A stretch of DNA of 64,000 nt from the IMG/VR virus record IMGVR_UViG_3300025073_000006; one strand, given 5' to 3'. The position numbers and the translations under genes were made by a program. The DNA is from a virus. Position 1 is the first letter of the stretch, and each line of letters begins with the position of its first letter. Under the pieces are notes generated by a model, which worked only from the letters and a program-made list of their open reading frames with translations, was not told the DNA's origin and did not search any database. Below, piece by piece: positions 5,114-58,094 of the stretch.

Positions 5114-5153
5114 CACGAGGCAACGACGAACCCCCGCCTCCGGAGACCACACC

Positions 5154-5459
5154 ATGACGACCACCGACACCACGACCCTGACCCCCTCCGTCGTCGCCGA
5201 GAACCTCGGGTACCTCAGCGACTTCAGGCGCGCCGCTCGCCGGGCGGCTCGCTGCCCCTCGCGCGATTCGGTCCCGGTCGTCGTCGTCGAGGGCAACGCC
5301 AAGCCCCGCGAGGTGGGCTCGCACGCGTACTACACCACGCAGGGCGGCACCCTCATCCACCACCCCAACGCCTACGGGCGGAAGTGCTACGACATGATCC
5401 GCTACCCCTCTACCCGTCACGTCGAGGTCGGCGCCGACTGGCGCCCCGTGGACTGGTAG
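5154..5459 (+). CDS. Hypothetical protein
   Basis: ATG 5154 follows GGAGA and is in frame with ORF 5109..5459. Protein-like composition. Confidence 0.55.
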   Translation: MTTTDTTTLTPSVVAENLGYLSDFRRAARRAARCPSRDSVPVVVVEGNAKPREVGSHAYYTTQGGTLIHHPNAYGRKCYDMIRYPSTRHVEVGADWRPVDW

Positions 5460-5465
5460 CCGCCC

Positions 5466-5509
5466 GCCCCCGCTCGGGGGCCCCGCAGAGCCCTGGGCGC
5501 TCCAGGGCT
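5466..5509 (+). terminator. Two tandem GC-rich hairpins after the stop at 5459
   Basis: GCCCCC-gctc-GGGGGC (5466-5481) and AGCCCTGG-gcgct-CCAGGGCT (5489-5509). There is no U-tract, so terminator function is uncertain. Confidence 0.3.
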
Positions 5510-5550
5510 GCGCCGGATTCCCGAGCCTCACCCGCACCCAGGAGCCCCCC

Positions 5551-5742
5551 ATGGCACGCGTCCCCACCTACCCAGACATCGAGACCGCCCGCTACGCCGA
5601 CGGGCAGGTGTTCGCCCGCTGGCTGCTCCGGTCGCTCCGGAGCGGGCGCATCGTCGCCCGCGGGTCGGACCGCGAGTGGTGGGAAGACGAGGCGCGGGCG
5701 CTGGACGACGCTCGGCTGATGGCCGAGGCCCGAGCCGCGTAG
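5551..5742 (+). CDS. Hypothetical small protein
   Basis: Track ORF with AGGAG 6 nt upstream of the ATG. Confidence 0.55.
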   Translation: MARVPTYPDIETARYADGQVFARWLLRSLRSGRIVARGSDREWWEDEARALDDARLMAEARAA

Positions 5743-5829
5743 AGTTCCCCGCTGTCCGCCCGCCCCGGCGGCCAGCGTCCAACCCAGGGGCACCGCGCCC
5801 GGCCGGGAGCCGGGCACCAGGAGCACACC

Positions 5830-6027
5830 ATGGACAACGACCATCGGTATGACTACGCCACCTGTCCAGGGTGCGGCCAGCGGTTTCAGTTGATCGACTG
5901 GCGCTGCGCCGTCCACCAGATCTACCACCCGGGCGGCGTGATCCCGGAGCCCGGGGTCGCGTGCAGCCCCATCGACATCTACCCGCCCGACGCCGACGCC
6001 GACCTCGGGGACGAGGAGGCGCTGTGA
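5830..6027 (+). CDS. Hypothetical small protein with CPGCG zinc-ribbon-like motif
   Basis: Track ORF with AGGAG upstream. CPGCG...C..H pattern. Confidence 0.55.
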   Translation: MDNDHRYDYATCPGCGQRFQLIDWRCAVHQIYHPGGVIPEPGVACSPIDIYPPDADADLGDEEAL

Positions 6028-25600: not shown

Positions 25601-28600
25601 GCGTCGGCCCGCTTGCTGAACCTCGGGCTCGCCGCGACCCCGCCCGTCTCCTCGAACACGCCCTTCCGCGCGAGCCCGGCCTGCTGCCTGAGCGAGGCCA
25701 CGGCGAGCGCCTGGATGTCGGCCTCGGTGAGGTCCAGGTACTTCCGCAGCGTCCCGAACGTCCGGTAGATCCATGCCCGGATCTGTGCCAGCAGGCGCCG
25801 CACCAGGGGCGTGTCGGGGTGGAACTCGACGAGGTAGGCCAGCCGCTCGCGCCGCACCGCCAGGTCCCGAGCCGGGCCAGGGTCTCCATCGACGCCAGCC
25901 TCGGCCGTGCGCGCCACCTCGGCGGCGAGGACCGTGTTCTTCTTGAGCAGCGCGTCCACCCGGTCGATCAGCGCCAGTTCGGCCGCCTTACCACCGAGCA
26001 TCGTCGCCATGCCGGCGTGAACACCGACCTCGTGGAGCAGGACGCGGGCCACCTCGCCCTCGGACATCTCGCGCACGTTGAGGTAGGTCTTGCCCTCGTG
26101 AAACACGCCCTTGACGCCGCGCATGTCCGACGACTTGAGCCCATCCGGCAGGGTGTCGAGGTCGTCGACAAGGACCACCTGCTCGGCCTCGAGCAACGCC
26201 TGGGCGTCTTGGCCGAACCGCTCGGTGATGATGGCGCGGGCCTGCTCGGCGGACTCCATGCGAGGTCCGAACTCCCAGGGCCGGTTGCGCGCGACGAAGC
26301 CGATGCCTCGACGCTGCTCGGCGAGGCCCATCCTCCCCGGCTGAACCGGCCCCTGCACGTCGGCCACACGGAACTGCACGTCGTCGAAGTGCCCTGCCAG
26401 CGACGTGATCTCGCCCGCCTCCAGCCGCCTCCACGCCGTCACCTCGTCGTAGGCCAGCATCATGCGGGCGGTGTCGTCGTCGATGATGCCGGTGCGGACC
26501 ATCTCCTCGAAGGCGTTCAGCCTCTCGGCGTAGCCCTGGGACGCCCGCATCTCCAACGACTCGGGGTCGACTTTGTCAAGCCGGGCCCGCCAGTTGTCGA
26601 TGGTCTGGCTGCGGGCCACCTTCGCCCGCTCGCCGAACTCGGCCAGCGTCTTGCGGACCGTCGCCTCGTCCTGGCCGGTGAGGTGCCGGATCAGGGTGGT
26701 GGCGTTCTCGCGCTGCGCCTTCGACATGACGTCGAGCGGGTTCATGCCCTTGCGCACGGCGTCCCGCATGACCTTGGCGGTGACGTGGTTGGCGGCGTCG
26801 AGGGGGTCGCGGATGGTGATCTTCGCCCGTCCGGCGGCGTCCTCGGCGTCGAGGAGGCGCCCGATCTGGACGGCCTCGGGAGCGAGCCCTGCCCATGCCC
26901 CCTCCAGCGCAGCCGTCATGCCCGCCCCGCGCAGATCGCGGTACAGTCCCGCGCCAACCCAGCCGCGACGGATCCCGGAGCCGAGGCCACGCAGCGCGAT
27001 GTCCTCGCCGGGGAACACGAAGTCGGCGATGATCCCGGAGGCGTTCAGGAACTTCCACTGCCAGGAGTCCTCGGCGAGGCCCATCCCGCGCCCGATGTTC
27101 TGCATCCCGAACATCCAGCCGGTTTCGCCCGTCTCGGTGCCCGCCAGAACGCGGGCGGTCCAGCCAGCCGACTCGAAGTCGCGCTGCGGCACGTAGTCGG
27201 ACGGGCCCCACCGCTGAAGCCCCCAGTCGACCCCTGCCAGGACCACCTCCTCAGCCATCGCCGAGGGCACACCGAAGGGGACGCGCATGGCCCAGCCGAA
27301 CGTCGTCTCGCCCCGGGCGCTCATGCTCACGGCCCCAAGGAACTCCTCGGCGTAGTCGAGCGCAGCGCCACCCGTCCGCTCGTAGGCCTCCCGGTTCGCG
27401 TCCACGCCGGCCTTCATCGAGTCGACGGTGATGGCCTGCTCGAGCGTGGCCTTGGGCAGGTCTGCCAGCGTGGCGCGCCGCCAGAACCGATTCCACACGG
27501 CGGCGACGGCCTCGTCGCGGTCGGCATCCGGCCCCTTCTTGCCCGCCGCCCGCAACGTCGGGTCGCTCGTGGCGTGGATGCCGTCCAGGTCGGCGATGAG
27601 TTCGAGCACGAGCGGGGAGGCGTCCTCGCCATCACGACGACCATCGGCCACGACGCGGGGCATCGTCGGCGCCTCGCCACCCACCCACACCCCCGACGGC
27701 AGGTTGCGGATCTCCAACGCGGGGAACAGCGGCGCCAGGTCCGCCGTCGTCTCGGCCGCCTCAATAATTTCCGCGTTCGTGAGCAGGTCGTTGTGCCGCG
27801 ACCCGTCGCGCTGGAGCTGTTCGTAGGCCTCCCGCGCGTCCTCGGGCAGCAACTTCGCCACGACCGGCGAGACGGGGCCCTCGACGGCGCGCACCAGGTC
27901 CCGGACGGCCTTGGGCGCCATCACGTTGGGCAGGAAACCCCATTCGGGATCCGCGTCTGCCGCGACCTCGCCCGCCACGGTGATCGTGCGCAGCTCGACA
28001 GGCTTGAGCCCCTCCTTGATCTCGGCCAGCGCCTCGTCCTTCCGGGGGTGGTTCCACGGCGCGATGGGCTCCTCGCCACGCGCCCGTCTCGCCATCCCCT
28101 CTTCTGAGTCGAGGATGCTGCTCCAGGTGTCGCGGATGACGCTCGCGATGGCCGATCCCTCGGGGATTTCTGCGCCCTCGGGCGGTTCGAGGCGATCCCA
28201 TGTGGCCCTTTTGATGGCGGCGAGTACGGCGCGGGGGCCGTCCCGGAGATTGTCCTCGTAGTCGGCCGCCCTCTCGATGCCGGCCGCCGTTGCCTTCTCC
28301 GCGGTCCACACCTCGCCTTCCGGCCGCCCGGTTTTCACCATGCCCGGCGCCATCGCACGCAGGGCCACATACCCGGCGTTGTCGCGCGGTGTCCCCTTGG
28401 CCTCGAAGGCGTCGAGCAGGAAGCCTGGCAGCGTCTCCGCGCCCTCAGCGTAGCTGATGTCGCGCTGAATCCGCTCCCACTCCTCACGCCTGACTGTCTC
28501 CTCGTCCAGGCTGCGGTCGGATTCGAGGCGCGTCTTCACCCTGGCCTCGGCGTAGTCTTCCAGCGCCGCCCTCAACTCGGGCTCGGACTTCGCGATGGGC

Positions 28601-28821
28601 GGGTCGCCGGGCGCCTCCTGCCGTTCGATGGGGCTGAAGTCGTCATCGTCGTCATCGTCGTCGTCGACGCCCACGTCAAGGGGCGCGACCGCGGCCCGAT
28701 CCATGGGTTCGTCGATCGGCTCGGCGCGCATCCGGTCGACCATCGCCTCAGCCTCGGAGCGAGGGAGCTTCGTGCGGGCCATGAGGTCGCGGATCGTGCG
28801 CTCGCGGTCGGTCGATGCCAT
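13630..28821 (-). CDS. Giant polyvalent virion (ejection) protein, 5,063 aa
   Basis: Single uninterrupted ORF. HEVGVH (26017-26034), ComF-like PRTase (VFLVDNVVSTGATF, 25204-25245), two ART-like modules (YHG 25018-25026, FHG 18619-27), duplicated module with H[VI]EEVQSD (23272-98, 20047-73), HENGH (17752-66), poly-Asp run (28639-65), C-terminal region with TM-like segment. Confidence 0.9.
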   Translation of the reverse strand: MASTDRERTIRDLMARTKLPRSEAEAMVDRMRAEPIDEPMDRAAVAPLDVGVDDDDDDDDDFSPIERQEAPGDPPIAKSEPELRAALEDYAEARVKTRLESDRSLDEETVRREEWERIQRDISYAEGAETLPGFLLDAFEAKGTPRDNAGYVALRAMAPGMVKTGRPEGEVWTAEKATAAGIERAADYEDNLRDGPRAVLAAIKRATWDRLEPPEGAEIPEGSAIASVIRDTWSSILDSEEGMARRARGEEPIAPWNHPRKDEALAEIKEGLKPVELRTITVAGEVAADADPEWGFLPNVMAPKAVRDLVRAVEGPVSPVVAKLLPEDAREAYEQLQRDGSRHNDLLTNAEIIEAAETTADLAPLFPALEIRNLPSGVWVGGEAPTMPRVVADGRRDGEDASPLVLELIADLDGIHATSDPTLRAAGKKGPDADRDEAVAAVWNRFWRRATLADLPKATLEQAITVDSMKAGVDANREAYERTGGAALDYAEEFLGAVSMSARGETTFGWAMRVPFGVPSAMAEEVVLAGVDWGLQRWGPSDYVPQRDFESAGWTARVLAGTETGETGWMFGMQNIGRGMGLAEDSWQWKFLNASGIIADFVFPGEDIALRGLGSGIRRGWVGAGLYRDLRGAGMTAALEGAWAGLAPEAVQIGRLLDAEDAAGRAKITIRDPLDAANHVTAKVMRDAVRKGMNPLDVMSKAQRENATTLIRHLTGQDEATVRKTLAEFGERAKVARSQTIDNWRARLDKVDPESLEMRASQGYAERLNAFEEMVRTGIIDDDTARMMLAYDEVTAWRRLEAGEITSLAGHFDDVQFRVADVQGPVQPGRMGLAEQRRGIGFVARNRPWEFGPRMESAEQARAIITERFGQDAQALLEAEQVVLVDDLDTLPDGLKSSDMRGVKGVFHEGKTYLNVREMSEGEVARVLLHEVGVHAGMATMLGGKAAELALIDRVDALLKKNTVLAAEVARTAEAGVDGDPGPARDLAVRRERLAYLVEFHPDTPLVRRLLAQIRAWIYRTFGTLRKYLDLTEADIQALAVASLRQQAGLARKGVFEETGGVAASPRFSKRADAAELPDDAIIGVPYNEGRTVAHAIKNGSPESIDAAADLLAPRVPKGAVLVPVPSSKGDTTVNLALAQAIAERSGATVADVLTGEARARSYDRKVSGGPDMLASEMTMRLRENATVPEGRVFLVDNVVSTGATFKAARTALGGDASIIAYAAAEDPFARARDAWTSLKTDSPWFKRWFGDSKVVDDKGQPLVVYHGTDAADIDAFDRAKSGKGPSKVGFWFTDDGEFASMFGDSTMPVYLKIANPLVLTQGKWNSLREAHGGDTAWWSTWREKQIAAGHDGLIVASSAEQLGKFTVRNPMVVAAFEPTQIKSISNRGTFDPGDPRILYSRRGPEYDRWLQRTNEAIAAMPVTDGVSGPALLKALHEWGSDVGPSVNIGTADILADIERAAGLEPGFMRDPAHDRRFWEGEIATRLMAADPELRAEWERFYAEADVEYGPALFSRRAQDTFYSAVERSVDDAFGAAKQMKGRSLVASLKKRPGVKQSELDWLGIEAWAAGRGVVTREEVRAFVKSNRVEIEEKVLGGKSPRAEAAKTAMQEVHRRKVAAEAKVRSAVEGIAIYPSQQDTRIMGVYMDGAQPMIDLNNGTRIGPSEVSDLLHRLNKYVEAYAFEEALTDYLLASSEWQDARREVELAYGAITKPQYDAHVLPGGENYREVLLRLNPGGTPPEPLTTLPEGYEPIVDRNQPESRQWGITPPGQIHARPWNGLHPTREAAIADALGRVNSDRENQWRDQQPTYQAPHFSGMSENLLAHLRVNDRLGPKGERLLHVEEVQSDWAADVRKKGVRGDEADTGLPVEVQPEDLSVAETEYQWIVSHPDGREVKVGKGTVGRDEAPSYGARVLNRERLDMQREIAVKNSERVPPTPFPQDWHELTMKVALRMAVEDGYDGVTWTTGKTQQDRYDLAKRVREVAYDPNGETLLAYDHDGKTVINKTVGIDEIDEYIGEKPGAKLREEVKRREYDRNSLFEVVEHPDDPDAFAIINTNGDYTLDMNHPDFAPERFVDRAGAEERINYDLVQEDESQGYPSISGLDLKIGGKWAEHLYDGMIPGFLKRYAAKWDAKPGMTDIQVPIAKDTSFAHDRSEKVHHLPVTDAMRESIAEGQPQFSRRNFDALAFGTEPPREGLYDEVVTAGHRAAWDGVGMDELPESTYTGATALDLARFRGRYRPEVAQADTGAMAPREQAATTTPLPDLALPGEWADMEVTEIDVRGGDTVSERTRARFSRRAEDDYAGEHRPTGPEEGAPLHDLTGAGVVYPDDVYGPNGVRYYGTGDEVLDRQAFAIARAMKGRPDAKVTIYRAVPKDNAERVGDIEHRMARILKRGASDPGEYDRLGAELERLRQAPPNEARRINPGDWVTITKAYAKDHGESALRGDYTILSARVKAADIFTNGDSIHEWGYWPDGQRPQFSRRVDPAPIWYSGLRRAVEGLKQDRFTPDQLRGALGKWQVKERVPEVKDGKPVMKGNEPVMRDGKMLATYPLNQGAEAEAHAARVGGVASFAGPAGVKVDEVKWTRLNEFLEGKKTVTKAEVLAYLDKNKVELGEVVLGTPSSALMDRYNVDPSDMEDAIEKARDVERKVARDARRAASRGRDAVAALRRGWQDIDNAKDYLDESVSIENNYGDSPTWEPVRSLLEDLIQRADDQHDAAVDALEDAEPDATDTSDVPDARLTDDEIAQLEAAVESAALNWTGLDWDEYVDVRTRDGEHERIDVSELLQDGTFAPSEGPAQYASLVLSGDSENYRELLFKMPRGLLLRMTQANMDLRIARLRRQVEEGVLIANQTGVWPQGHRDAQLRLAKAQDDRISPPPYRSSHFPASGEGENLLAHVRFNDRVGPNGEKILHIEEVQSDLHQAGREKGYKTQELPGEMEQALRARETVALAERTAAHQAQLDAIEAYESAANAVTQYETTTPRPRNMPSDAPPEQVEQWTRDTQAWADAAGDIFDRKREAISALRRAFDQRFELAGGAPNVPSGLYLGGRLMTPDDLRAMADRQLERSEAARDEWARNEFDAFNANRVPDAPFAKTWHEMVLKRMLRFAAENDYDAVSWTTGVQQVKRYEDQVRKVVDEIRWRKEPMSPYLWRDARETRAMDEYGEPWSVLTPKEQAAITASMGPGAESRIVIEAIKDGRVVHNDAKSATEMKGVIGGDMVKAIMASPEQSGSLKGPDLTVGGQGMIGFYDKMLPAWMNKYAAKWGARVEVGDIGLTRDMPAENWHVFRQSTGEDVAQFGTEQDAASYVSRAAQDGDPDLAGLDYAQTTRIADPVHMIRLTPEMRRSVLEQGQAQFSRRAPSTPEFQEWSRGLPVINFDDVEAIPEGGAIVRAFHGSRFDNIDEFRQQDTAYGYFFSPDARTADFYRGGGDGVGRRYEVYLRMENPADFNDPAVFEAVAKEAIWDDDSGRVVLGRYGEMRNMENSDFREWLAAEATKLYGSDAAVKAWVDDLAEQAGEPLVGNPDALRDAIDYDAIDEYDIENTLLSESPALKAALDEAMPVRSREIDAARAAHNEGSQNWYMNYQDDFVKAAEHMGYDSVVMTDPSPEGAPISFVVFKPEQIKDIANERPTSDPRITHSRRAPGAPLTGQFFGAAGTGTPGNARWLLEFFRGADWRTLLHENGHLLQEFIGEDGRALLAVYYDSLPQHMVDDIHQRANAGESPAQIATALGLETHVEDMNGTRIEPDVLTVENVLRATPGEPVLTRLGMDQAADAFRRYVELRMQPTGALGRAVAEVGERLRETWAQFRGQQVELPAEVRASWDRLLRPEGVAQRRLVVIGEAGRPDFPIVRVDPGPEYAVEEKIRKAGQAREAKRTAVRDEELLQELGLEVGDQVPLDELVSKVAAYMVVEDARKWMIGVDMVTLTPRTVIPKARLGRVRKAALSRLAGALGDTPANLVATAREGDASVRLTPAQQSGLRIYARQLASEPIATIYGRSLVPERLLDPAANLDTITFAEVNRLQELALDVEAGAATRRTRRTASVSPSAAAAFVDVLGRAIPSKLKNTLTKAFIVERPMAGYPDPHVQDIVERHSRELGGAQDWVRNGVRAQRAMRPWYSRMGFKDVGSIMESLRGVANELTPPVARNGHDVGIVDILFAQHQALSGDAPNVDAILNPVRLVALQDALDSWRHGLSPEEEAALRILDSYRGRTAVNLAPAELLDVEDAVSRIAVGLGDRVRVVELRANEIAIILTGSSEANILATLQWYDRVALYKAFYEGRWLPEHGPQVPLPNRPPTLFDIMAGMGRATGLADKSLWRRIKDAVQGRRTFKMDPNVALAEAIVRMRAHDILGRMADELAEYGLLGPERGRDVDVGLPLRDRFYDHVVAALNARVAWNDSTALDQYTGSVVRRGPPAPHQDLPTVDRRRLAGPPGAFHGHPDMAALLYADDLMDRWGWKRGEGLWTAMDLDGRRIMVPQMFQEQIKLALDEAATVGTARRSGQVVGTIAPLREPAPGAAVGSRAALHAENALLVVFDAVPKLFSRIKVGMVVGILVPNVFSYIGNILDGQWQWFQRDGLRAVFGAQVNPARQKLVKDVFIGLWGEQRAIEGRGVLVTKDGRVYSAEQLRQMARSYGLNSSFVHAESARALTDDIRREHRTWIENVLLPFEWWQEQLVSAYTAIDNYGRLHVFFDHLAKGADPAEAAAAARMALYDYGNMTDFEQRVMRQVSLFYAYERANQTLFWWTLLNHPSRVAGQVRLIRDMQQLYLEDEYRIVRPENYERQLMVAYRRFIEDGVRVDVRGVDVEADPLRRLGLAFVTRQQPAVDGFTLWGEIISWALSAFDDPKAAARVANRLPPWWQAPIVSATRVDPSTSYNIDSGNFNTVPPWFIALDRALTGGLIVDDFLGVRPVDEPDPAKRYDVDIPYRWVVGQGNELRWWGIQNLGHALPGMGRGISTMQALDRSFDHGPVERLVRGTLATREALGLTPGKTHPYIRETLEGPRVGRTPGDELVGFFIAKPILVDTAQELRRRDTQRAAGKAGADKRELKRADNP
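17925..18640 (-). other. ART-like module 2 inside the giant protein
   Basis: VRAFHGSRFDNIDEF....GYFFSPD...ADFY...YEVYLRMENP...GYDSVVM....SFVVFKPEQIKDIAN. Confidence 0.45.
24660..25035 (-). other. ART-like module 1 (ART-PolyVal-like pattern) inside the giant protein
   Basis: VVYHGT..ADIDAFD....GFWFTDD...ASMFG..VYLKIANP...GHDGLIV....VVAAFEPTQIKSISN. Same pattern as module 2. Confidence 0.45.
25145..25470 (-). other. ComF/type-I phosphoribosyltransferase-like domain inside the giant protein
   Basis: VLVPVPSSKG...LALAQAIAERSG......R.......M.........EGRVFLVDNVVSTGATFKAARTAL. The PRPP-loop-like acidic-hydrophobic stretch followed by STGAT is typical of type I PRTases. Confidence 0.6.
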
Positions 28822-44258: not shown

Positions 44259-46516
44259 GCCTCCGGGGTCGGTGCGGGTTGCGCGGCGCCCTGGGTGAGC
44301 ACCTGCTGGATGCTGGCGATGAGGGCGCGCACGGCGTCGGGTTGCTGCTCGGGGGGCAGGGTGCGGATGCGTGCGACCTCGGCCTTGACCGTCGGGTCCT
44401 CGCCGAATTGCGCCTCGATCTCACCCAGGGCGGCCTCGGCCATGACCCCTGGGTCCTCGGCCGGCGCCTGGGTGGGCTGCTCGACCGGACCTGGCGCGGC
44501 GGGCGGCGGGGCGTCGGTCGGTGCGGGTTCGGCCGCTCGGTCGATGGGCGAGGGCTTCGTGGTCTTCGCGGCCTTGGCGGCGTCGAGTGCCGCCCACAGG
44601 CGGTCCGGGCTCAGGTTCGGGGGCAAGGTGAAGTTGTCGTAGATCGCCTGCATGGCCTCGCGGGCGATGATGGCCTCCGGTGAGCCCGGATCCTTGGTCG
44701 CCATCACCCACAGCTCCATGTACTTCGGCAGCACCTCGGACAGGTTGGCCCGGATCTCGAGCCGTGCGCCCGGTGTCCGGCCAACATCCGAGAAGCTGAA
44801 CTTGAACCAGGAGTCGAGATCCTTGACGGTGACCTCGACCTTGTTGCCTGTGGTGTCGAACAAGGTGATGCTCTGGCTCGCAGCCTTGCCCCGGGGCGGC
44901 TTGGACCCCTTCGGCATCCGCGCCATCATCTCGTCGGTCGGCGCGGCCCGCATCATCGGGTCCTCGTCCTCGTCCTTGTCGCGCTCCCGGGTGTAGTCCG
45001 GCTGGATGTCGACCGAGTCCTCGTCGCCGTCGTCTTCACCCTCGGCCCACTCGCCGTCGGGGGTGGGCCGCATCGCCGCCACGAGGGTCTGGACGTAGGC
45101 CTCCGCGAGCTGCTCGAGCGTCCGCTCCCAGGCCGAGGCGTAGCGACCGAACTCGGAGTCGGTGAAGTCGCGCTGGTACTGGATTTCCTCGGCGGTGACG
45201 TTCTGCCTCACGCCAAACGCCGAGGGCGACAGCGCCACCTCGGCGACGAAGTCACGCTCGGCGATGTCGGCGAACCGCTCGATGTCCACCGACGCCTTCG
45301 CGGGCTGGACCTGAGCGATGTACCGGCGGGCGTCCGAGCCGATCTCCTTCCAGGTCTTCTGGTCGGGGAACAGCACCTCCATGTCCTTGGCGCTGACCAC
45401 CTTCTTCTTCTCGTCGCTGCTCATGCCCGGCGCGCCCACCCAGATCACCTTGTCGCGGGATGCCTTGTCAGCCATCTGCGAGCGGTAGGCGTTGAGCTCG
45501 CGCTGCTGGGGCATCCACTGCGCGGCGGGGGCGAGGCCTTGGAGCGGGTACTCGGCGCGCGTCTCGAAGAAGTGGACGAAGATGTGCGGGGCCGGCTCGC
45601 CGTCGGCGTCGAGGCCGGGCATCGGGCCGACGTAGAGGGGTTCGTCCTTGCCTGCCAACTCGGCAGGCTGGTCGAGCAGGTAGACCTCGTAGGAGCCGCG
45701 GTAGACCTCGCCGTCGTCGTCCACGTAGTCCTCGGCGAAGTTGCAGAGCTCCATCACCCGCACCCACTTCGCCTCGGTCCCGACGAGCGAGGTTGACGTG
45801 GAGTCCTGAGCGCCGGGGCTCTGCGCCGTGCCGCGTGATGACCCGCGCGAGTCGAGGAAGTCGTTGCGGTACTGGCCTGCCAGCTTGTCCTTGGGCAGGT
45901 TGTACTCGGCCGCCACCTGCTCCAGGGGTCGCCATCCGACGTGGCCCCGAAACCGCTGGTGGCGCACGTCGTAGACCTCGCGGTCGATGACGGCCTCCCA
46001 GATCGGGCACACGTAGAGCTCGACCCGGTCGGGCGGCGGCTTGGCGCAGTCCTCGTGGTTGACGGCGAACCGGAAGCACACGCCCGGGTAGAGCAGGGCC
46101 TGGCGCACCGCCGAGTCCCACCGCTGGCGCTGCTCGGCGGCGAACATCCAGTCGTTGACGACCAGGCCGGCCTTGTCGGGGTCGCCCGTCGTGGTTGCTG
46201 ACGGGGAGACGTCGACGCGCATGGAGCGCGGGAACAGGTTGGCGTAGTAGGCCGACGCCGCGGGCTTGATCTTGTTCGTCTCGTACCGGTTGGAAATCGA
46301 CTTGATCTCCTCGCTCACCTCGCCCTTCGCCTCGCCGATCACCCACTGCCACCACCTCGTCTCGTAGACGGCGGCCACTCCTGCGAGCTCGGCCTGCCGC
46401 TCTTTCCAGAAGGCGTCGTGCTCAGCCAGGGCAGCCATGGCGCGCTGACGGCGCTGGCGAGGGGTCGTCGGCTCCGGCTTGGGGTCGTCGTTGATCGTGA
46501 TGTCGTCGGTGCTCAC
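44255..46516 (-). CDS. Portal protein (753 aa)
   Basis: Immediately downstream of the large terminase with a GTGA overlap. Size typical of portals. Acidic C-terminal region. Confidence 0.8.
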   Translation of the reverse strand: MSTDDITINDDPKPEPTTPRQRRQRAMAALAEHDAFWKERQAELAGVAAVYETRWWQWVIGEAKGEVSEEIKSISNRYETNKIKPAASAYYANLFPRSMRVDVSPSATTTGDPDKAGLVVNDWMFAAEQRQRWDSAVRQALLYPGVCFRFAVNHEDCAKPPPDRVELYVCPIWEAVIDREVYDVRHQRFRGHVGWRPLEQVAAEYNLPKDKLAGQYRNDFLDSRGSSRGTAQSPGAQDSTSTSLVGTEAKWVRVMELCNFAEDYVDDDGEVYRGSYEVYLLDQPAELAGKDEPLYVGPMPGLDADGEPAPHIFVHFFETRAEYPLQGLAPAAQWMPQQRELNAYRSQMADKASRDKVIWVGAPGMSSDEKKKVVSAKDMEVLFPDQKTWKEIGSDARRYIAQVQPAKASVDIERFADIAERDFVAEVALSPSAFGVRQNVTAEEIQYQRDFTDSEFGRYASAWERTLEQLAEAYVQTLVAAMRPTPDGEWAEGEDDGDEDSVDIQPDYTRERDKDEDEDPMMRAAPTDEMMARMPKGSKPPRGKAASQSITLFDTTGNKVEVTVKDLDSWFKFSFSDVGRTPGARLEIRANLSEVLPKYMELWVMATKDPGSPEAIIAREAMQAIYDNFTLPPNLSPDRLWAALDAAKAAKTTKPSPIDRAAEPAPTDAPPPAAPGPVEQPTQAPAEDPGVMAEAALGEIEAQFGEDPTVKAEVARIRTLPPEQQPDAVRALIASIQQVLTQGAAQPAPTPEA

Positions 46517-48132
46517 GGGGTCGCCATCCGGGCCAGGGCGTGCGGATCGATACGTCCTGTCCGCTGTTGTAGCGCCGATCTGCCCCTGGTGGGGCGATAC
46601 TGGCGGGTTTCAACCGTCGGGAGGTCCCGCCTGGCCCGCGCGGCGAGGCCGAGGGCGAGGACGTGGTCGTCTGTGTGGCCGTCCTGGCCCTGGAGGCGGC
46701 CGTTGTGCTCGCGGAAGTGCGTCATCTCGCGCAGGGTTTCGAGGTCGGGGATCAGGAGCGCGCCCACGTTGACCTCCTGACGGAGCTGCGACAGCATGGC
46801 CTCGCGGCTGCCTCCCGTCGTCACCCAGTCCTTCGGGTGCCCGCTCGACGTGTCCCGCCAGAGGTTGACGCCCTCGTCGTAGAGCAAGCGGATCACCTGC
46901 TTTCCGATGGCGTTGCTCTCAACGAGGGTGAGCGCGCCGCCGTACATGCGGGCGAGGGTGCTCACCTTGCGCGAGAAGTCGACCTCGCCGCCGAAGCGTG
47001 AGGTGAGCACGGCGCACATGCGGCCCAGGTCGTCGAGCACGATGGCGACCGCGAAGTCGCCGCCGTTGCACCACGACGGGTCGACGCCGATGCAGTAGGA
47101 GCGGGTCACGTCCGGGCGGCGGTAGAAGCGGATCTCGCCTGCCGGGTTGTCGGCGGCCTCTTGAAGCGTGATCAGGTGGTTGAGCCACGCGATGTCGAAC
47201 CAGCCGCCCTCCCAAGCGAGGAAGCCCTCGTCGAGATTGGACGGGTAGTCCTTGCGGAATTCCTCAAGGCCAACACCCCTGGGTCCGCTGATCTTCTGGC
47301 GCCTCCAGTAGAGGCGGGCCAAGGTTTCCGCGTCCGCGATCTGGAGGCCGATGTCCTCGGCGTAGGCGACCTCCTCCTGGTCCGGCTCCCACCCGTCCGG
47401 CGGCGTGGTCTGATACTCGGGATGCCGGTACCACGGCCAGAAGTTGACGCGCACCGACTTGTCGCCCAGGGCCACGGCGCGGCGGGCGCCGCGGACCTTC
47501 TCGGCGTACAGCGTGCCCGGCCCGGTCGGCGTCGAGATGATGTGCGTGGGGCAGTTGTCGGGCACGGTCGCCTGGATGGAGGCCCAGTTCGTGCGGGCGT
47601 TCACCCACTTGCCCATCTCCTCGCACACGACGGCGTGGTAGTTCCACGACTTCGCCTCAGTCGAGCCGCCGACGGTGACGTGCTGGATGAGGGCGTCGTT
47701 GCGCTCGAAGATGACCGAGTTCTTCGACAGGTTCAGGCGGACCGGGCCGTGGCGCTTGAGCCCGGACGCCATGTGGTCGACGAACACCCGGTAGCGCCGC
47801 ATCGAGGAGTCGGTCGTGCTCTGGTGGTTCGTCGCGATCAGGACCTTGTAGGGGAACGGCGCGGCGTGAGCCGAGGCCTGCTGGTTGGCGGCTTCCTGTG
47901 TCGAGCGGCCCACCTGCCGGGCCTTGACGTCGATCGTCTGGGTGACCGCCGGGTCCTCGTAGGCCGGCTGCGCCTCGACCTGCATCGGGTGCGGGTGGAC
48001 GAACGGGCCTGGCGGGTCGCGGGGGTCGCGCTTCTCGATGTGGAGGTTGGCGATGTAGGCCCGTCGCCCCGTGCTCGTCGTCCAGACCCAGTTCAGGTAG
48101 GCGCCCCAGTCGGGGACGTGGGCGCCCGTCAT
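46513..48132 (-). CDS. terL: Terminase large subunit
   Basis: Walker A-like KARQVGRST, Walker B-like AVVCEEMG, coupling motif STPTG, nuclease-domain acidic motifs IGVDPS and HTDDHVLAL. Confidence 0.9.
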   Translation of the reverse strand: MTGAHVPDWGAYLNWVWTTSTGRRAYIANLHIEKRDPRDPPGPFVHPHPMQVEAQPAYEDPAVTQTIDVKARQVGRSTQEAANQQASAHAAPFPYKVLIATNHQSTTDSSMRRYRVFVDHMASGLKRHGPVRLNLSKNSVIFERNDALIQHVTVGGSTEAKSWNYHAVVCEEMGKWVNARTNWASIQATVPDNCPTHIISTPTGPGTLYAEKVRGARRAVALGDKSVRVNFWPWYRHPEYQTTPPDGWEPDQEEVAYAEDIGLQIADAETLARLYWRRQKISGPRGVGLEEFRKDYPSNLDEGFLAWEGGWFDIAWLNHLITLQEAADNPAGEIRFYRRPDVTRSYCIGVDPSWCNGGDFAVAIVLDDLGRMCAVLTSRFGGEVDFSRKVSTLARMYGGALTLVESNAIGKQVIRLLYDEGVNLWRDTSSGHPKDWVTTGGSREAMLSQLRQEVNVGALLIPDLETLREMTHFREHNGRLQGQDGHTDDHVLALGLAARARRDLPTVETRQYRPTRGRSALQQRTGRIDPHALARMATP

Positions 48133-52536: not shown

Positions 52537-53090
52537 GGCCGCCCCGCCCACCACTGCTCCCTGGCCTTGATCGCCACGTCGAACTGCTCCAAGCAGCCCA
52601 CCAGGTAGGCGGCCAGGATGAAGTCAGGCGTGTTCGACCCGTTCTCGGCACTGTGCCGGTTGATGGCCGACGCGATGTCCTCGCGCAGGGTCGGCGGCCT
52701 CTTCCCGGCTGCCTCCCCGCGCGTCATCTCCCACGCCTCCAGCCAGTTCAGCATCTCCTCGGGCCGGTTGCAGCCCGTGATCCGCTCGACGGACTCCAGG
52801 ATCTGGGTGACGGTGTCGGACAGCGGGGCGGGGTCGGACGGGATGTCCGTCTTCACGGTAAGCCGCCCAGCCAACGCCTTGAAGCAGCGGGCCAGAAGCC
52901 TCGCGCCGTCCTCATCCAGGAGGCTCTCTGTCCACCCGACGCGGATCGTGCCGGTGTCGCCGCGGGGCATCTCGATGTCGACGAAGACGGACTGCTTGGC
53001 CTCCGGGATGTCCCACTGCGCGTGGTCGGTCATGGTGACCCGGATGATGTAGGCCTCGGCCGGGATGCTGCTGATGTCGACGTGGATCAT
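52533..53090 (-). CDS. Hypothetical protein
   Basis: ATG 53090 overlaps the upstream stop (ATGA) and is in frame with track ORF 52533..53129. Confidence 0.6.
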   Translation of the reverse strand: MIHVDISSIPAEAYIIRVTMTDHAQWDIPEAKQSVFVDIEMPRGDTGTIRVGWTESLLDEDGARLLARCFKALAGRLTVKTDIPSDPAPLSDTVTQILESVERITGCNRPEEMLNWLEAWEMTRGEAAGKRPPTLREDIASAINRHSAENGSNTPDFILAAYLVGCLEQFDVAIKAREQWWAGRP

Positions 53091-53509
53091 GAAGGCTCCC
53101 GGCAGGCGATGGCCGACGACGCCCACCACCGGGCCATCCGGAGCTGATCGCGTGCGATCCCGTTGAGCCGCTCCAGGTCAGCCGCTTCCGGCATGGCCGG
53201 TGACGCGAGCAGCGAGATCGCCTCGTTGAGCGCGTTGCGGGCGAGCCGGATGCAGCGGATCGCCGCCGTCTGGTCAGCGACCGGGGGCGTGTACTCGACG
53301 ATAACCTCGGCGAACGCGCGGCAGTGGCTGTTCACTCGGTCGTAGGGGTTGGCGCTGTCGATGGAGTCGTGACCCGCGATGCAGCGGGCCAGCCAGCCGC
53401 ACAGGTCGGCGGCGTTGCACTCAGCCAGGCGGATCGCGGCGTAGTGCGGGGCCTGCTCCTGGGTGGGCGGGTGGTAGGTGAACCAGAGGTCCAGGGTCGG
53501 GTTGTTCAC
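53087..53509 (-). CDS. Hypothetical protein
   Basis: GTG 53509 is in frame with track ORF 53087..53644. The start WFTYHPPT..Q...Y..IR is common in small phage proteins (family unverified). Confidence 0.55.
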   Translation of the reverse strand: MNNPTLDLWFTYHPPTQEQAPHYAAIRLAECNAADLCGWLARCIAGHDSIDSANPYDRVNSHCRAFAEVIVEYTPPVADQTAAIRCIRLARNALNEAISLLASPAMPEAADLERLNGIARDQLRMARWWASSAIACREPS

Positions 53510-53510
53510 G

Positions 53511-54524
53511 TCAGGCTCCTGTGTAGTCGATGGCGTCCATGTCGAGTGTGTCCAGCGTGGCGTTTGCCGGGGCTGTGGGGGCCGTGGCCGCGTCGGCGAC
53601 CGGTACCCCCGCCATCTCCCGCCTGCGCATCTCGACGAGCACACGGGCGGCAGCTCGGGCGTCGTCGAGGGCGCGGTGGGCCTGGCCCTGCTCGACGCCG
53701 AAGTGGGTGCAGGCGGCGGCGAGGCTCACGCTGTTCTTCGCCCGGCCCTTGCGGTCGGCGATGGTGACGCTGCGGGCCCTCATGTGGTCGTGGGCCGCCA
53801 GCATGATGCAGTGGCCCCACGACCACCACAGGGCGGTACCGTGTGCGGCGATGTAGGCCGGATCGGTGGACGAGCAGCGGATACCCGTGCGCACCATCAT
53901 CGGCGCGTCGAAGGCGACGCTGAACGCCGTCACGATGATCGGGCCCGCCGCGCGGCGCAACAGGGACTCGAACAGCACCTTCGCACCCGACTCGGGTGGC
54001 GCGTGTTCGAGCATCGCCCGGGTGATGCCGTTCACCGCGAGCGCCTGGTCTGCACGCTCGTCGAGGATGTCGGGCCGCACGAGGGTCGACATGCAGGCGA
54101 CCTCGTGGCCGTAAAAATCAAGCAAGACCGCGCCGAGCTCGACGACGCGGGCCCAGTCCTGGCCCGGGAAGCCCGTCGTCTCGGTGTCGACGACGACGGT
54201 GAAGGCGTCGAAGAGGACGGGGGCGGTCGCCGGGGCTGGCTCGCGTGATGATGCGGGCGGGCGGTCGATGAGCGGGGGCAGTGGCTGGTTCAGGGCGTCA
54301 CGAACAACGGCCAGGCTGTGCGTTTTCGCCCACTCATTCACCTTCACCTCGACTTCGCCCTCGGTGCCGGTGACCTGGTCGACCACCATCAGGCCGTCCT
54401 TGACGCGCTGCACGAGGACTGCAGCGGCGTAGTCACCCTCGTCCCCGTAGTCGGCGCCGATCCCGTAGGCCCCCACCTTGTCGAGAGCGGGCAGCACTAC
54501 TGACCTCTCGCCGTTTCCTGCCAT
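53511..54524 (-). CDS. DEDDh 3'-5' exonuclease (DnaQ/epsilon-like) with N-terminal extension
   Basis: Exo I VVDTETTG, Exo II AFSVAFDAPMM, Exo III HRALDDARAAA. Confidence 0.85.
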   Translation of the reverse strand: MAGNGERSVVLPALDKVGAYGIGADYGDEGDYAAAVLVQRVKDGLMVVDQVTGTEGEVEVKVNEWAKTHSLAVVRDALNQPLPPLIDRPPASSREPAPATAPVLFDAFTVVVDTETTGFPGQDWARVVELGAVLLDFYGHEVACMSTLVRPDILDERADQALAVNGITRAMLEHAPPESGAKVLFESLLRRAAGPIIVTAFSVAFDAPMMVRTGIRCSSTDPAYIAAHGTALWWSWGHCIMLAAHDHMRARSVTIADRKGRAKNSVSLAAACTHFGVEQGQAHRALDDARAAARVLVEMRRREMAGVPVADAATAPTAPANATLDTLDMDAIDYTGA

Positions 54525-54559
54525 GTCGCCTCCGCTGGAGCGTGTAACCGGGCGGTGTC

Positions 54560-54588
54560 AGTGTACTTGATCCAGGTGGGCGAGGCAA
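54560..54588 (-). promoter_or_regulatory. Putative promoter TTGCCT-N17-TACACT (minus strand)
   Basis: In the 129-bp gap upstream of exonuclease ATG 54524, followed by a GGAGG RBS. Confidence 0.35.
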
Positions 54589-54653
54589 CGGGGGGTGAGG
54601 AAGATGCCCGCGATTTCCAAATAGCTGGCGTAGTGCCGAAATAAACCGCACCA

Positions 54654-54854
54654 TCACCGCCGCCCCTCCTGCCCCTCGCACCCCGCCTCCGCCTCGTCCA
54701 GCGCGTCGAGCACCCGATGCAGGGCCCACGTCGCCCGTGAAGCCCTCCCCCTCGCCTGGTCGAGTCGGTGGAGGTCCGCGGGGCTCAGGGACAGCCCTAC
54801 GCGCTCACGGGGGCGGCGTTCGGTGTCGGGGGTGTGTGCCGGGGTGCTGGACAT
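54654..54854 (-). CDS. Small ribbon-helix-helix-like regulator (66 aa)
   Basis: RVGLSLSPADLHRLDQARGRASRATWALHRVLDAL fits a strand-helix-helix pattern. No SD. TATACT ends 6 nt upstream of the ATG. Confidence 0.5.
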   Translation of the reverse strand: MSSTPAHTPDTERRPRERVGLSLSPADLHRLDQARGRASRATWALHRVLDALDEAEAGCEGQEGRR

Positions 54855-55025
54855 GCTCGGAGTATAGCGGGTGCGGTCGCCCGTGGCTACCCGTGGGGCG
54901 ATGGGGACATGCCGCGCCCCTGCTCATCCGTGCGTCCTTCCTCCTCCCGGGCGTCGTTGTGATCGTCGCCGTCGGTGCTTTCCCCTCCACGCCCTCACCT
55001 CTGCGCCCCCTTGAGCGTCCTCTAC

Positions 55026-55402
55026 TTGCGACGGTTGCGACGGCTTGCGACGGATCTTGCGACGTGACTTGTCTACCTTCTAGTTATGTTTTACCTCAAC
55101 TAGAATATATACGTCGCAATGTCGCACCCCAAATCGTCGCAGAGCATTTTCGCCAAATGGGTACACCCTTACCACAGGGGTATGATCCATTTCCCCGATC
55201 CCTATAGGGGCTTTTGGCGGCGACGTTGCGACGTGGCGGTGAAACCGCCGCATAGTTGGCGTTCCACCGATACACCTTACGTCGCAAGTCACTTGCGACG
55301 GCTTGCGACCGCCTGCGACGTTGACTTGCTGATTCCCCACACGCAACGCCACATTACAGCGTCACACGGATCGCGTCAAGGCGATCTGCGACATTGCGAC
55401 GG
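55026..55402. promoter_or_regulatory. Iteron cluster (TTGCGACG) with AT-rich core: putative replication origin and/or operator array
   Basis: Perfect TTGCGACG on plus at 55026, 55035, 55045, 55057, 55226, 55293, 55394. Inverted copies at 55111-55119 and 55279-55287. Near copies at 55303, 55313, 55386, 55120, 55133. AT-rich 55078-55112. Lies in the largest non-coding gap (54855..55411), next to the helicase gene. Confidence 0.65.
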
Positions 55403-55411
55403 ACCGCCCCC

Positions 55412-57451
55412 TCAACGCTCGTCGAGGCCGTCCATCGCGTCCTGGCTCTCGGCGAGCAGGGCGATGCCGGTGGGTCGCGTGTCGAGGTTCGGGGGCTGCA
55501 CCGGCATCCGGTAGTCGGTGCGCCCCTTCGCCGTCTTGGTCCATCCCCGGGCGGCCCACTGCCGGAAGATCGTGCCAGGCTCGCCGAACCCAGCCTGTTG
55601 CAGCACCCGCCGCAGGTGTGCCGACGAGCAGAGCCAGTAGTCGCCGCCGGACGACTTCCACCCGAGCCACCCACCAGGGGGCGGTTTCGTCACAGAGTCC
55701 GGGCTGTGGAAGAACTCGCCGTTTGAGCCGATCCACGCCCACGTCGTCTCCAGCGCCCTGAGCGCCTGGTCCGCCTCGCCGCACGCTTTGAGGACCTGCT
55801 GCCAGATCCACGCCAGCGTGGCGTCCGCCCCGCCCTCGGGCTTGGGGCATCCGACCGCGTGGACGAATGCCGCGGTGGCGCCGATGGTCGCCATGTACTT
55901 GGCCGCGCGTCCGGCGATCCGCGTCGTCGCGTCCTTGGCATAGTCCGCTTCGCTGCGGCGGTACGCCGCCCGCATCCCGTCGACCTGTTCGTGCGTCAAC
56001 CCGACGAGCCTGTCGAGGATGCGCGGGTAGAGGTGGCCGTGGTGCTGTCGGATGGCGGCCACGAGATCGTCAGCCTGCTTCTTGTCGCGCATGGGTGCGC
56101 CGTGGACGACGAGGATACGGGCCCGCACGCCGTCGGTGGGCGCCCAGTTCGTGATCCCCTCCTCGCTGGTCGAGATGACCACGGTGCGCCAGTCGTCGAC
56201 GTGGGCGAGCCCCAGGCGCCCCAGCGCGCCCTTGGCCCGGCTGCTGCCCTCAGCCAGGGCGTAGAGCAGGGCACCGGCGGCCGGACGGTCCTGGGGCTTC
56301 ACGAGCTGCCCCTCATTCAGAGCCAGCGGCAGGTCGCAGAGGATCCCCGCCGTCCCCTCGGCGCCGGCCAGCGTCGCACCCCACGACCGATAGCCGCGCC
56401 CGTTGCGGGGCATCCCGTAGGTGCTCACCCCGAACTCGAGGACTGTCGACTTCCCGCTTGAGCTGTCCCCGGCGAAGTCGACGCCGAAGTTCGGCGCGTC
56501 GAGGATGCGCAGGAACGGCGCGGCGGCGGCGGCGTACATGGCGAGGAAGGCGTGCGGTCGGTCCGCCACGACGCGCACCGCGTCACACCACCCCTCCCAC
56601 GTCCCCAGCGGCGCGATGGATTCGGCGAGCTGCCGGGCACCGGCCGACGAGGGCACGTAGCGGGTCGGCGATGGCGTCTGGCCGAACGGCTGGATGCACA
56701 GGTCACCCAGCAGGTAGGCGCTCCTCGACCGCCCCACCCACCCCATTCGCGCAGCCCCCGTGATGGTCGGGATGGCGGCCTGCTGATCAAGGCGGGTCAG
56801 CCACTCGACGAGGCGACGGGCCGACGACGATGACACCGGCAGGCCCTGGTCAGCGAGGCGCACAAGGGCGCGGGAGTCCAGCGCGACGGACCGGGGTACG
56901 CGCTCACGCTTCCACTCGTAGCCGTCCAGCCATGCCAGCTCGACGGAATAGGACCCGTCATCGGCGTCGACGAGGCGCGACGTGATCAGCAGGGGCACGC
57001 CGACGTGTTCGAGGTGGACCTGCCCGTCCGAGACACGGAGCCGGTGCAGCCCGTCGTCGTCTAGCCGCCATCCCGAGGGCACCGTCACGCCGGGCGGGTA
57101 GTCATCCCACCCCGACGCCTCACGCACCGTGATCGCCTCCTCGTGGTCGTCGACGACGCGGAGGTTCCGGTTTCGGCGCTTCTCGCGGTCGCGCTTCTCC
57201 TCCTTGAGCCTCGACCTGAGCAGGCCGGCGGCGGTCGCGGTCAGCACGGCGCCGAGCCTCATGCACTGCGCCTCGACTTCCGCCCCCCGGGTGAGGTAGG
57301 CGTCGACGACGCGGCCGAACAGGTCGCAGTCGCTGAGCAAGTCGATCAGGGGGCCTTGTCGCTCGGACGATGTCTCGCCCCCGTCCGCTGCGATCTGGTC
57401 GACCGTGGCCGCGAGGATGGCGACGCCGTCTCGGTGGTCGGGTGCGTTCAC
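55412..57451 (-). CDS. DUF927-type P-loop replicative helicase / origin-binding ATPase
   Basis: GTG 57451 follows GGAGGAG (the track ORF extends to 57571). Walker A FAGDSSSGKST, Walker B-like region, about 680 aa as in plasmid/phage DUF927 helicases. Adjacent to the iterons. Confidence 0.75.
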   Translation of the reverse strand: MNAPDHRDGVAILAATVDQIAADGGETSSERQGPLIDLLSDCDLFGRVVDAYLTRGAEVEAQCMRLGAVLTATAAGLLRSRLKEEKRDREKRRNRNLRVVDDHEEAITVREASGWDDYPPGVTVPSGWRLDDDGLHRLRVSDGQVHLEHVGVPLLITSRLVDADDGSYSVELAWLDGYEWKRERVPRSVALDSRALVRLADQGLPVSSSSARRLVEWLTRLDQQAAIPTITGAARMGWVGRSRSAYLLGDLCIQPFGQTPSPTRYVPSSAGARQLAESIAPLGTWEGWCDAVRVVADRPHAFLAMYAAAAAPFLRILDAPNFGVDFAGDSSSGKSTVLEFGVSTYGMPRNGRGYRSWGATLAGAEGTAGILCDLPLALNEGQLVKPQDRPAAGALLYALAEGSSRAKGALGRLGLAHVDDWRTVVISTSEEGITNWAPTDGVRARILVVHGAPMRDKKQADDLVAAIRQHHGHLYPRILDRLVGLTHEQVDGMRAAYRRSEADYAKDATTRIAGRAAKYMATIGATAAFVHAVGCPKPEGGADATLAWIWQQVLKACGEADQALRALETTWAWIGSNGEFFHSPDSVTKPPPGGWLGWKSSGGDYWLCSSAHLRRVLQQAGFGEPGTIFRQWAARGWTKTAKGRTDYRMPVQPPNLDTRPTGIALLAESQDAMDGLDER

Positions 57452-57452
57452 G

Positions 57453-58094
57453 TCAGAACTCCTCCATCTCGGCGTCAGCACCCTCGGCGTTTCGCGCTCG
57501 ACAGTACTCCTCGAACGGCTCGCCCAGGTAGATGGTCCGGATCCCCTTGTCGCGCAGCGTGGCCCGGTCATCGGCGGACATGCGCCAGCACGTCGCTACG
57601 ACGAACTTCACCCCATCCGTGTGCTCGCGGTAGAGCGCCATCTGGCGCGCGATGTCGCCGATGTCCACCGGCTTGACTTTGACTTCAACCATGGCCAGCC
57701 GAACATCCCCACTCCCCCGCCACACCCGCACTTCGTGCGAATACGGTCGGACTTCCGCGAACCCGACGATCGACAAACGCACCCTCAACACCACGTCGAC
57801 GAACCCGACGAGGTACCCGTGGCTTTTGGTGATCGGGGCCTCGATCACACTGCTCACGAAGGTCAACCCCGTCGTCCACTCCGATCTCCGCCGCCGATCT
57901 GACGGGTCGCTGGCGATTCTCACCATCTCCTCATCGGTGGGATGGTCCCCGTTGGGCCAGATCATGCCCGCGAGTTTCAGCGCCACGTCCTCGCGACAGA
58001 GGTACTGACAGGCGAGTGTGTGCCGCCGGTCGCGCTTGTCGGGGTCGCTGAACCCGAGCGATGCGAGCAGGGTCCGCTCGTGTGAATGAGCCAT
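57453..58094 (-). CDS. PD-(D/E)XK nuclease-fold protein
   Basis: GYLVGFVDVVL ... LAMVEVKVKP fits the D...(D/E)xK signature. Confidence 0.55.
   Translation of the reverse strand: MAHSHERTLLASLGFSDPDKRDRRHTLACQYLCREDVALKLAGMIWPNGDHPTDEEMVRIASDPSDRRRRSEWTTGLTFVSSVIEAPITKSHGYLVGFVDVVLRVRLSIVGFAEVRPYSHEVRVWRGSGDVRLAMVEVKVKPVDIGDIARQMALYREHTDGVKFVVATCWRMSADDRATLRDKGIRTIYLGEPFEEYCRARNAEGADAEMEEF

Follow-up and report, generated by a model that had tools for sequence, protein, structure and literature searches.

The repeat array and its setting

We analysed a 64,000-nucleotide stretch of DNA from an uncultivated virus (IMG/VR record IMGVR_UViG_3300025073_000006), the whole of which is called the window, or W, below, and in it the non-coding gap at 54855-55411, which carries a dense array of short repeats and is proposed here to be a phage replication origin. 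The gap is 557 nt long and extends from the stop codon of a DUF927 helicase gene (55412-55414, minus strand) to the ATG (54854, minus strand) of an open reading frame (ORF) of 66 amino acids (aa). Metagenomic and genomic contigs that were compared with W are designated by L-numbers.

The repeat unit is the octamer TTGCGACG. Nine perfect copies were found in the 64-kb window, and all nine fell inside 55026-55401 (376 bp): seven on the plus strand, starting at 55026, 55035, 55045, 55057, 55226, 55293 and 55394, and two on the minus strand, at 55112-55119 and 55280-55287. Window-wide shuffles predicted 3.8 copies per 64 kb and about 0.02 in the span of the array, and when the 557-nt gap was shuffled 2000 times with its dinucleotides preserved, no 8-mer exceeded four copies, as against the nine observed. 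Three copies with a single mismatch (55135, minus; 55303 and 55313, plus) and two with two mismatches that retain a TGCGAC core (55120, minus; 55386, plus) were also present in the gap, which contains 14 of the 45 occurrences of this hexamer in the window. A second comparable repeat cluster or AT-rich dip was found nowhere in the 64 kb.

The copies are arranged in several groups. On the helicase side, the octamer at 55394-55401 (plus) is preceded by a degenerate CTGCGACA at 55386. A distal cluster follows at 55280-55320, in which the inverted copy at 55280-55287, the perfect copy at 55293-55300 and the one-mismatch copies at 55303 and 55313 lie about 10 bp apart; its first two copies form a perfect palindrome, CGTCGCAAGT-c-ACTTGCGACG (55280-55289 and 55291-55300). 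A single octamer stands at 55226-55233 (plus; -128 in helicase sense from the anchor defined below), with a degenerate CGGCGACG alongside at 55218. The set at 55112-55142 (minus) consists of a perfect copy (55112-55119), a degenerate one (55120-55127) and the one-mismatch copy (55135-55142), and it flanks an AT-rich core on the helicase-proximal side. Beyond this core, four perfect octamers in the opposite orientation occupy 55026-55064 (plus) at spacings of 9, 10 and 12 bp.

The AT-rich core, a putative DNA-unwinding element at 55078-55112, has 26% GC in a window of 70% GC. No other 35-mer in the window is as rich in AT (the next lowest has 40% GC), and the core lies inside the least stable 50-mer of the window (-58.8 kcal/mol against a mean of -82.3 with a standard deviation of 4.0, or about 5.9 standard deviations). 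It holds an inverted repeat, TTCTAGTT...AACTAGAA, and the motif TATATATTCTAG (helicase sense), which is common to the relatives. The CTAG at its centre was invariant in a four-way alignment, and TTCTAG was found in the arrays of W, L002, L007, L010 and L148.

Much of this layout had been described in an earlier note made from the letters of W alone. The nine perfect octamers lay at the sites that it had given, and the search across the whole window placed every one of them in the gap; the two inverted sites also held, with starts (55111 and 55279) that were off by one because 9-mers had been quoted. The rarity of the octamer was confirmed, the estimate of about 0.01 copies in the span being replaced by the shuffled value above, and the count of at least five one-mismatch copies was slightly overstated. 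The 9-12 bp phasing of the first four copies, the perfect palindrome at 55280-55300, a GGCGGT-gaa-ACCGCC hairpin at 55235-55249, the end of the helicase gene 10 nt from the last octamer and the start of the small ORF at 54854 were all recovered, and the AT-rich stretch noticed between the iteron groups proved to be the window's lowest in GC and its least stable DNA.

Between the core-flanking set and the lone octamer, a central spacer (55143-55225, about 55% GC) displays dyad symmetry and the motif CCCCTATAGGG. L002, L007, L010 and L005 likewise have a CCCC(T/A)TA(G/T)G-like motif and the potential to form a hairpin, and DNA-fold z-scores of -0.3 to -2.9 place the element only modestly above shuffles in folding. 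Counterparts of this element were seen in every lineage examined (L002 7296-7400, L007 3090-3175, L005 8262-8372 and L010 3478-3585), with a CACACAC...GTGTGTG stem in L002, L007 and L005. The GGCGGT-gaa-ACCGCC hairpin had no obvious counterpart when the gap sequences of the relatives were compared by eye, and no T-run follows it; it is therefore probably incidental. An Rfam scan of the gap returned one chance microRNA match (E 0.15) and no Rfam family, no terminator-like site was found in 54500-55700, and no tRNA was found in the window. The population variants L144-L147 are identical in the gap and hence give no footprint.

The neighbouring helicase

The gene at 55412-57451 (minus) encodes a predicted initiator-helicase of 679 aa when read from the ATG at 57451; the longest ORF reaches 57571. 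The protein matched Pfam DUF927 (E 5e-38) and PHROG 8841 (primase/helicase), and it combines a DUF927 AAA+ core with a C-terminal helix-turn-helix (HTH)/winged-helix region of the Cch type. To compare it with known structures, a family profile was used that contained the W helicase and ten homologs at 40-55% identity. This profile matched Cch (PDB 5dgk) with an E of 1.8e-39 and 8tch, a staphylococcal 'pathogenicity island protein', with an E of 2.3e-39. Both alignments cover the ATPase core and run on through the C-terminal domain, the homology being full-length, and the HTH_56 domain itself was matched by 10 of the 11 family members (best E 1e-8). A tblastn match was also located inside PT1028, an element resembling the staphylococcal pathogenicity islands (SaPIs). 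We propose that a C-terminal domain of the DNA-binding type is present in the W helicase by homology and that it is the predicted binder of the octamers.

A literature search found no relevant paper for PDB code 8TCH, and a search for DUF927 helicases in Streptomyces phages met the term, among the papers listed, in only one, on a Thermus mobile element, and gave nothing on origins. Scans of viral and genome contigs with the single protein returned nothing, or only a 31%-identical match from Longimycelium. That match lies on a 3-kb contig of Longimycelium tulufanense (L001, NZ_BMMK01000086.1), in which a 58-bp tandem repeat with the palindrome TGCACGCGTGCA occupies 380-690 upstream of the DUF927 homolog; the 8-mer ACGCGTGC was counted 18 times there on both strands. 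The L001 repeat may be an origin of comparable type that lies 5' of its gene.

Directly upstream of the W helicase, 57453-58094 (minus) encodes a 213-aa protein that had no Pfam or PHROG match and is unrelated to the Toprim-like proteins whose genes sit upstream of the helicase in L148 and L005 (E 6.7e-5 in L005). A PD-(D/E)xK-like motif (GFVDVVL ... EVKVK) was noticed in it by eye.

Arrays with the same layout and different words in related lineages

To compare the arrays, contigs encoding homologs of the helicase were read in helicase sense and anchored on the shared TATA(A)TTCTAG at the start of the AT-rich core. The words are written as on the plus strand of the window, that is, as the reverse complement of helicase sense; positions are relative to TTCTAG, m marks a copy with one mismatch and inv an inverted copy. 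In W, TTGCGACG is at -296, -215m, -205m, -195, -182 inv, -128, -37m inv, -14 inv, +41, +53, +63 and +72. In L148, the word is TGGCGACA, at -255, -246, -235, -220 inv, -168, -160, -38 inv, -30 inv, +47, +59, +70 and +81 inv. L002 has GGGGACAC at -247, -238m, -227, -216, -190 inv, -138m, -119m inv, -26m inv, -17 inv, +36, +48 and +72 inv, and L007 has the same word at -227, -216m, -205, -179 inv, -127, -37m inv, -26 inv, -17 inv, +35, +61 inv and +82 inv; L135 and L138 are near-identical to L007 and share its word. In L010, AGCGGGTC is at -287m, -217, -208, -197, -132, -22m inv, -14 inv, +42m, +54 and +71m inv. L005 carries phased GGTGGATCA repeats beside an AT-rich core that contains CTAG, and shares the central CCCCATAGG...CACACAC...GTGTGTG element.

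Five helicase lineages (W; L148; L002, L007, L135 and L138; L010; L005) thus use five words in a conserved layout. The inverted set at -14 to -38 is common to all relatives in position and orientation, and on the far side of the core the relatives have one to three copies in the same orientation at +35 to +72, followed in some by inverted copies. Clusters equivalent to the distal cluster of W were found at -255 to -180 in L148, L002, L007 and L010, and counterparts of its lone copy at -127 to -138, with a pair at -168/-160 in L148. The array is directly 3' of the helicase gene in L148, L002, L007, L135 and L138, as it is in W. Among the closest lineages, the words bear an evident resemblance to one another (TTGCGACG, TTGGCGACA, TGGGGACAC). 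The gaps of L002 and L007 are 65% identical overall; their octamer columns reached 79% identity against 50% elsewhere (Fisher p 1.6e-7), in an alignment that the repeats themselves help to guide. Judged from these comparisons, constant geometry combined with a variable word is the hallmark of an array of binding sites that would be co-evolving with its protein.

L009 ends 23 nt past the helicase stop, and L149, from the same sample (ERZ27254732), begins 383 nt before the small gene, on its upstream side. The break in the assembly seems to fall within the array, so origins of this kind may often go missing where contigs end. The end of L005 (8657-8716) carries a Nextera adapter (CTGTCTCTTATACACATCTCCGAGCCCACGAGAC), an assembly artefact in the public record. 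In L010, the helicase stop codon and the iterons are separated by an inserted HNH endonuclease gene (2797-3312).

The octamer word follows the helicase

The 66-aa ORF at 54654-54854 (minus), on the other side of the gap, is a conserved small gene. Its homologs, found by tblastn and profile searches, form a family of eleven unannotated members or clusters, and a homolog lies directly after the array in W, L007, L010 and L148. A promoter-like site, TAGCCA-17-TATACT, at 54861-54889 (minus) ends 6 nt before its ATG, at the edge of the proposed origin module and outside the array. It is the only such site in 54500-55700, contains no octamer, is 137 nt from the nearest one, and is conserved in L148 as TAGCCA-17-TACACT. 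In L144-L147, the public gene calls leave 888 nt without a gene at about 5040-5928 (corresponding to window 54524-55411), and the small ORF is unannotated there.

L148 separates the two candidate readers of the octamer. Its small protein is 95% identical to that of W, and 100% identical over residues 11-53, the whole of the putative DNA-binding part, whereas its helicase is only 55% identical to that of W overall and 45% in the last ~140 residues, which form the C-terminal domain. The L148 array contains 12 copies of TGGCGACA and none of TTGCGACG. Since the core of the small protein is the same and both the word and the helicase differ, the word follows the helicase and not the small protein. 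At the nucleotide level, W and L148 are 69% identical in the helicase gene, unalignable in the gap (L148 4546-5001) and 86% identical from the small-gene promoter onward (W 54896 = L148 4959). Because homology breaks sharply, exactly between the array and this promoter, the helicase gene and the array behave as one exchangeable module or cassette, and the small gene with its promoter as another.

A candidate replication origin

With a probability of roughly 0.8, we interpret the gap at 54855-55411 as a phage replication origin for a self-loading DUF927 initiator-helicase of the SaPI Rep/Cch kind; binding, melting and replication at this site are inferred. The interpretation is favoured because the helicase is homologous to Cch and 8tch, relatives of the SaPI Rep proteins whose origins share this design, and because the DNA of the window that melts most easily has inverted iteron sets on its two sides. 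The earlier note had suggested an origin that combines a DNA-unwinding element with iterons to which an initiator binds, and helicase homology, conserved architecture and the co-variation of word and helicase all support that suggestion.

On the model of SaPI Rep (PMC9371898), the helicase encoded at 55412-57451 would recognise TTGCGACG through its C-terminal winged-helix/HTH domain. The opposed copies at 55112-55142 and 55026-55064 would then place two helicase rings head to head across the 35-bp AT-rich core, binding would distort and melt the core, the rings would close on the single strands, and bidirectional unwinding would begin. In an origin of this class, Rep is expected to bind and melt the DNA without ATP, and the origin fragment to support replication. 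The distal cluster at 55280-55320, the lone copy at 55226 and the stop-proximal copy at 55394 may serve as auxiliary sites for cooperativity, looping or control. A bolder and rather doubtful idea is that the distal palindromic cluster, the lone copy and the central dyad with its CCCC(T/A)TA(G/T)G element make up a second functional unit of a compound, two-centre origin; this unit could be a priming site or primer-RNA start, a second helicase assembly site, or a control region acting by looping or handcuffing. If true, such an origin would be of a type undescribed for DUF927 helicases.

The SaPIbov1 and SaPI1 Rep-ori origins (Ubeda et al. 2007, as cited in PMC9371898 and PMC7581432) are the closest known systems. 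PMC9371898 describes SaPI origins as lying directly downstream of rep and as having 6-12 iterons of 5-6 nt, which an AT-rich stretch in the middle divides; each side has two or more, and those of the two sides point in opposite directions; the Reps are self-loading initiator-helicases that recognise the iterons through a C-terminal winged helix. Cch, a DUF927 protein, is related to the Rep of SaPIbov1 in the account of PMC7581432. W shares with these systems an origin placed immediately 3' of the helicase gene, a fitting number of iterons (9 perfect and 5 degenerate), opposed sets (55112 and 55135, minus; four copies at 55026-55064, plus) around an AT-rich centre, which also occur in four other lineages, an iteron word that co-variation suggests is specific to the cognate initiator, and an initiator that would itself be the replicative helicase, with a C-terminal winged helix predicted by homology. 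The two systems differ in that W comes from an uncultivated high-GC phage element of ~70-80 kb, whereas a SaPI is a 15-kb staphylococcal satellite, and in that W adds the distal phased palindromic cluster, the lone copy and the central dyad to give a three-part array of ~380 bp.

The staphylococcal cassette chromosome SCCmec offers a second comparison. Its Cch (5dgk) is likewise a DUF927 helicase with a Cch-type C-terminal HTH, and its putative origin, according to PMC7581432, also lies in the intergenic DNA that directly follows the helicase gene; it has short direct repeats that are bound by the C-terminal domain, as shown for Cch2. However, the binding data given there concern Cch2, which belongs to a different helicase family, and the SCCmec site is described as three 5-nt iterons without the symmetric layout of W around an AT-rich core. 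PMC7581432 also draws the analogy with simian virus 40 large T antigen and papillomavirus E1, where inverted short repeats flank a meltable segment on which double hexamers assemble, a likeness that extends to W.

These viral superfamily 3 initiator-helicases and the P4-alpha/D5-type primase-helicases belong to a different helicase clade, have an N-terminal DNA-binding domain and show no sequence homology to the W helicase. A scan of viral contigs for paired TTGCGACG gave mostly chance single matches, and the four loci with real clusters had no homolog of the W helicase. At one of these, L077 (47-3205), an unrelated 879-aa primase-helicase with Prim-Pol, PriCT_2 and D5_N domains precedes an AT-rich segment that contains TTCTAG and is surrounded by TTGCGACG copies, two direct and two inverted, the same octamer and design as in W on a different replicon; L102, L110 and L117 also bear TTGCGACG clusters. 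The iterons of iteron plasmids (RepA/pi/TrfA) are direct repeats of 17-22 bp bound by a dedicated initiator with winged-helix domains that recruits host DnaB, and the lambda ori lies inside the O gene. These origins resemble W in having initiator-binding repeats beside an AT-rich unwinding element; in W, by contrast, the proposed binder is the helicase itself. An origin of the iteron-plasmid or lambda type was rejected, as a Pfam search of 30 window ORFs found no Rep_3/RepA- or O-type initiator domain, and the repeats are of 8 bp and in both orientations.

Several observations weigh against an origin of the SaPI kind. The W helicase itself scored only 17 bits against HTH_56, below the Pfam cutoff of 26.2. 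No primase homolog was found upstream of the helicase in W, where the pri-rep-ori gene order of SaPIs is therefore lacking, in distinction from those relatives that have the Toprim-like gene. The iterons measure 8-10 bp and not 5-6 nt, and, as far as the SaPI origin description in PMC9371898 goes, the distal cluster and the central dyad have no counterpart there. The array does not always adjoin the helicase gene, being ~1 kb downstream past three small genes in L005 and beyond the HNH gene in L010, and L008, L139 and L141 showed no adjacent array-like repeats within the sequence available. The co-variation rests on few independent lineages, and P0003 and P0004 not only have a word in common but are each nearest to the other in overall relationship. 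Cumulative GC skew has a weak extremum at 54295, which is confounded by gene orientation and uninformative.

The array might also have another role. The earlier note had offered it, alternatively or additionally, as an operator for the small downstream protein, then labelled 'RHH' (ribbon-helix-helix). On this reading the protein would bind the phased octamers cooperatively and regulate its own operon or read-through from the helicase gene. RHH proteins such as omega and ParG do bind arrays of short direct and inverted repeats, the small gene or its homolog follows the array immediately in W and three of the contigs, and the L010 homolog, alone in its family, has a weak match to RHH_1 (E 0.018). 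In W, the label found no support: Pfam returned no match at E<=1, the family profile gave no RHH match in the PDB (a weak test), and a single-sequence AlphaFold2 (AF2) model, likewise a weak test, showed one long helix at residues 25-65 and no beta-alpha-alpha fold. The L148 swap also speaks against an operator, for there the octamer has changed beside a small protein with an unaltered core, and in L002-L004 the homolog lies three genes and ~900 bp beyond the array with no octamer before it. Together with the octamer-free promoter, whose distance from the array is noted above, these results make an operator very improbable.

Another reading is that the helicase, or another phage protein, does bind the array, as a regulatory or structural site, and that initiation occurs elsewhere; a transcription barrier between modules, copy-number control by handcuffing and a loading site for recombination-dependent replication are forms that this might take. 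Co-variation speaks to specific recognition and not to function, the array lies between two co-oriented transcription units, and the absence from the SaPI origin description (PMC9371898, as far as it goes) of the distal cluster and central dyad could be read in the same way. Yet inverted iteron sets around the single most meltable segment of the window reproduce the geometry of characterised SaPI origins, and no other site in the 64 kb offers a comparable cluster or AT-rich dip, so we regard this alternative as improbable, if less so than the operator. Phage attachment (attP) arm sites, a partition centromere (parS) and a terminase pac/cos site can all appear as clusters of short direct or inverted repeats over a few hundred bp, sometimes with an AT-rich core. 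These three readings were rejected and retain hardly any likelihood: the terminase gene (46513-48132) is ~7 kb away, the array stays in the replication module and changes its word with the helicase, and neither a cognate integrase or recombinase nor ParA or ParB was found, and no plasmid-type Rep either, in the Pfam scan of the 30 window ORFs or among the Pfam matches precomputed for the called genes of the relatives.

The origin design proposed for W is already known from staphylococcal pathogenicity islands; it is expected for this helicase family and will not surprise specialists. What the candidate origin would add is a precise, testable pair of origin and initiator for an uncultivated high-GC phage lineage without a cultured relative, and an example of the SaPI/Cch self-loading helicase design in a full-size phage, beyond the staphylococcal satellites. 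The five putative cognate helicase-octamer pairs, including a natural module swap, would be a resource for mapping how Cch-type C-terminal domains read DNA, and could be used for orthogonal replicons in high-GC hosts.

Genome context of the window

The window is phage-like, with the terminase gene, virion proteins and a methyltransferase, and the gap lies in a replication and recombination module whose products include a PDDEXK exonuclease, a RuvC-like resolvase, an RNase_T exonuclease and a DEAD/SNF2 helicase. When 54000-58000 was compared with phage genomes by megablast there was no match, and no close relative was found among sequenced phages. The same phage recurs as contigs of 57-79 kb in many metagenomes.

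Two other genes of the window were noticed. A single ORF of 5063 aa at 13630-28821 (minus), with a high GC content at third codon positions, contains two ART-PolyVal domains (ADP-ribosyltransferase of polyvalent proteins); its product belongs with the giant polyvalent proteins that some phages and conjugative elements carry. In the early region, the 185-aa protein encoded at 53087-53644 (minus) matched the Acb2/Tad1 hairpin domain (E 3.7e-7; 30.7 bits against a cutoff of 27), and it may be a nucleotide sponge acting against the cyclic-oligonucleotide-based antiphage signalling system (CBASS) or Thoeris.

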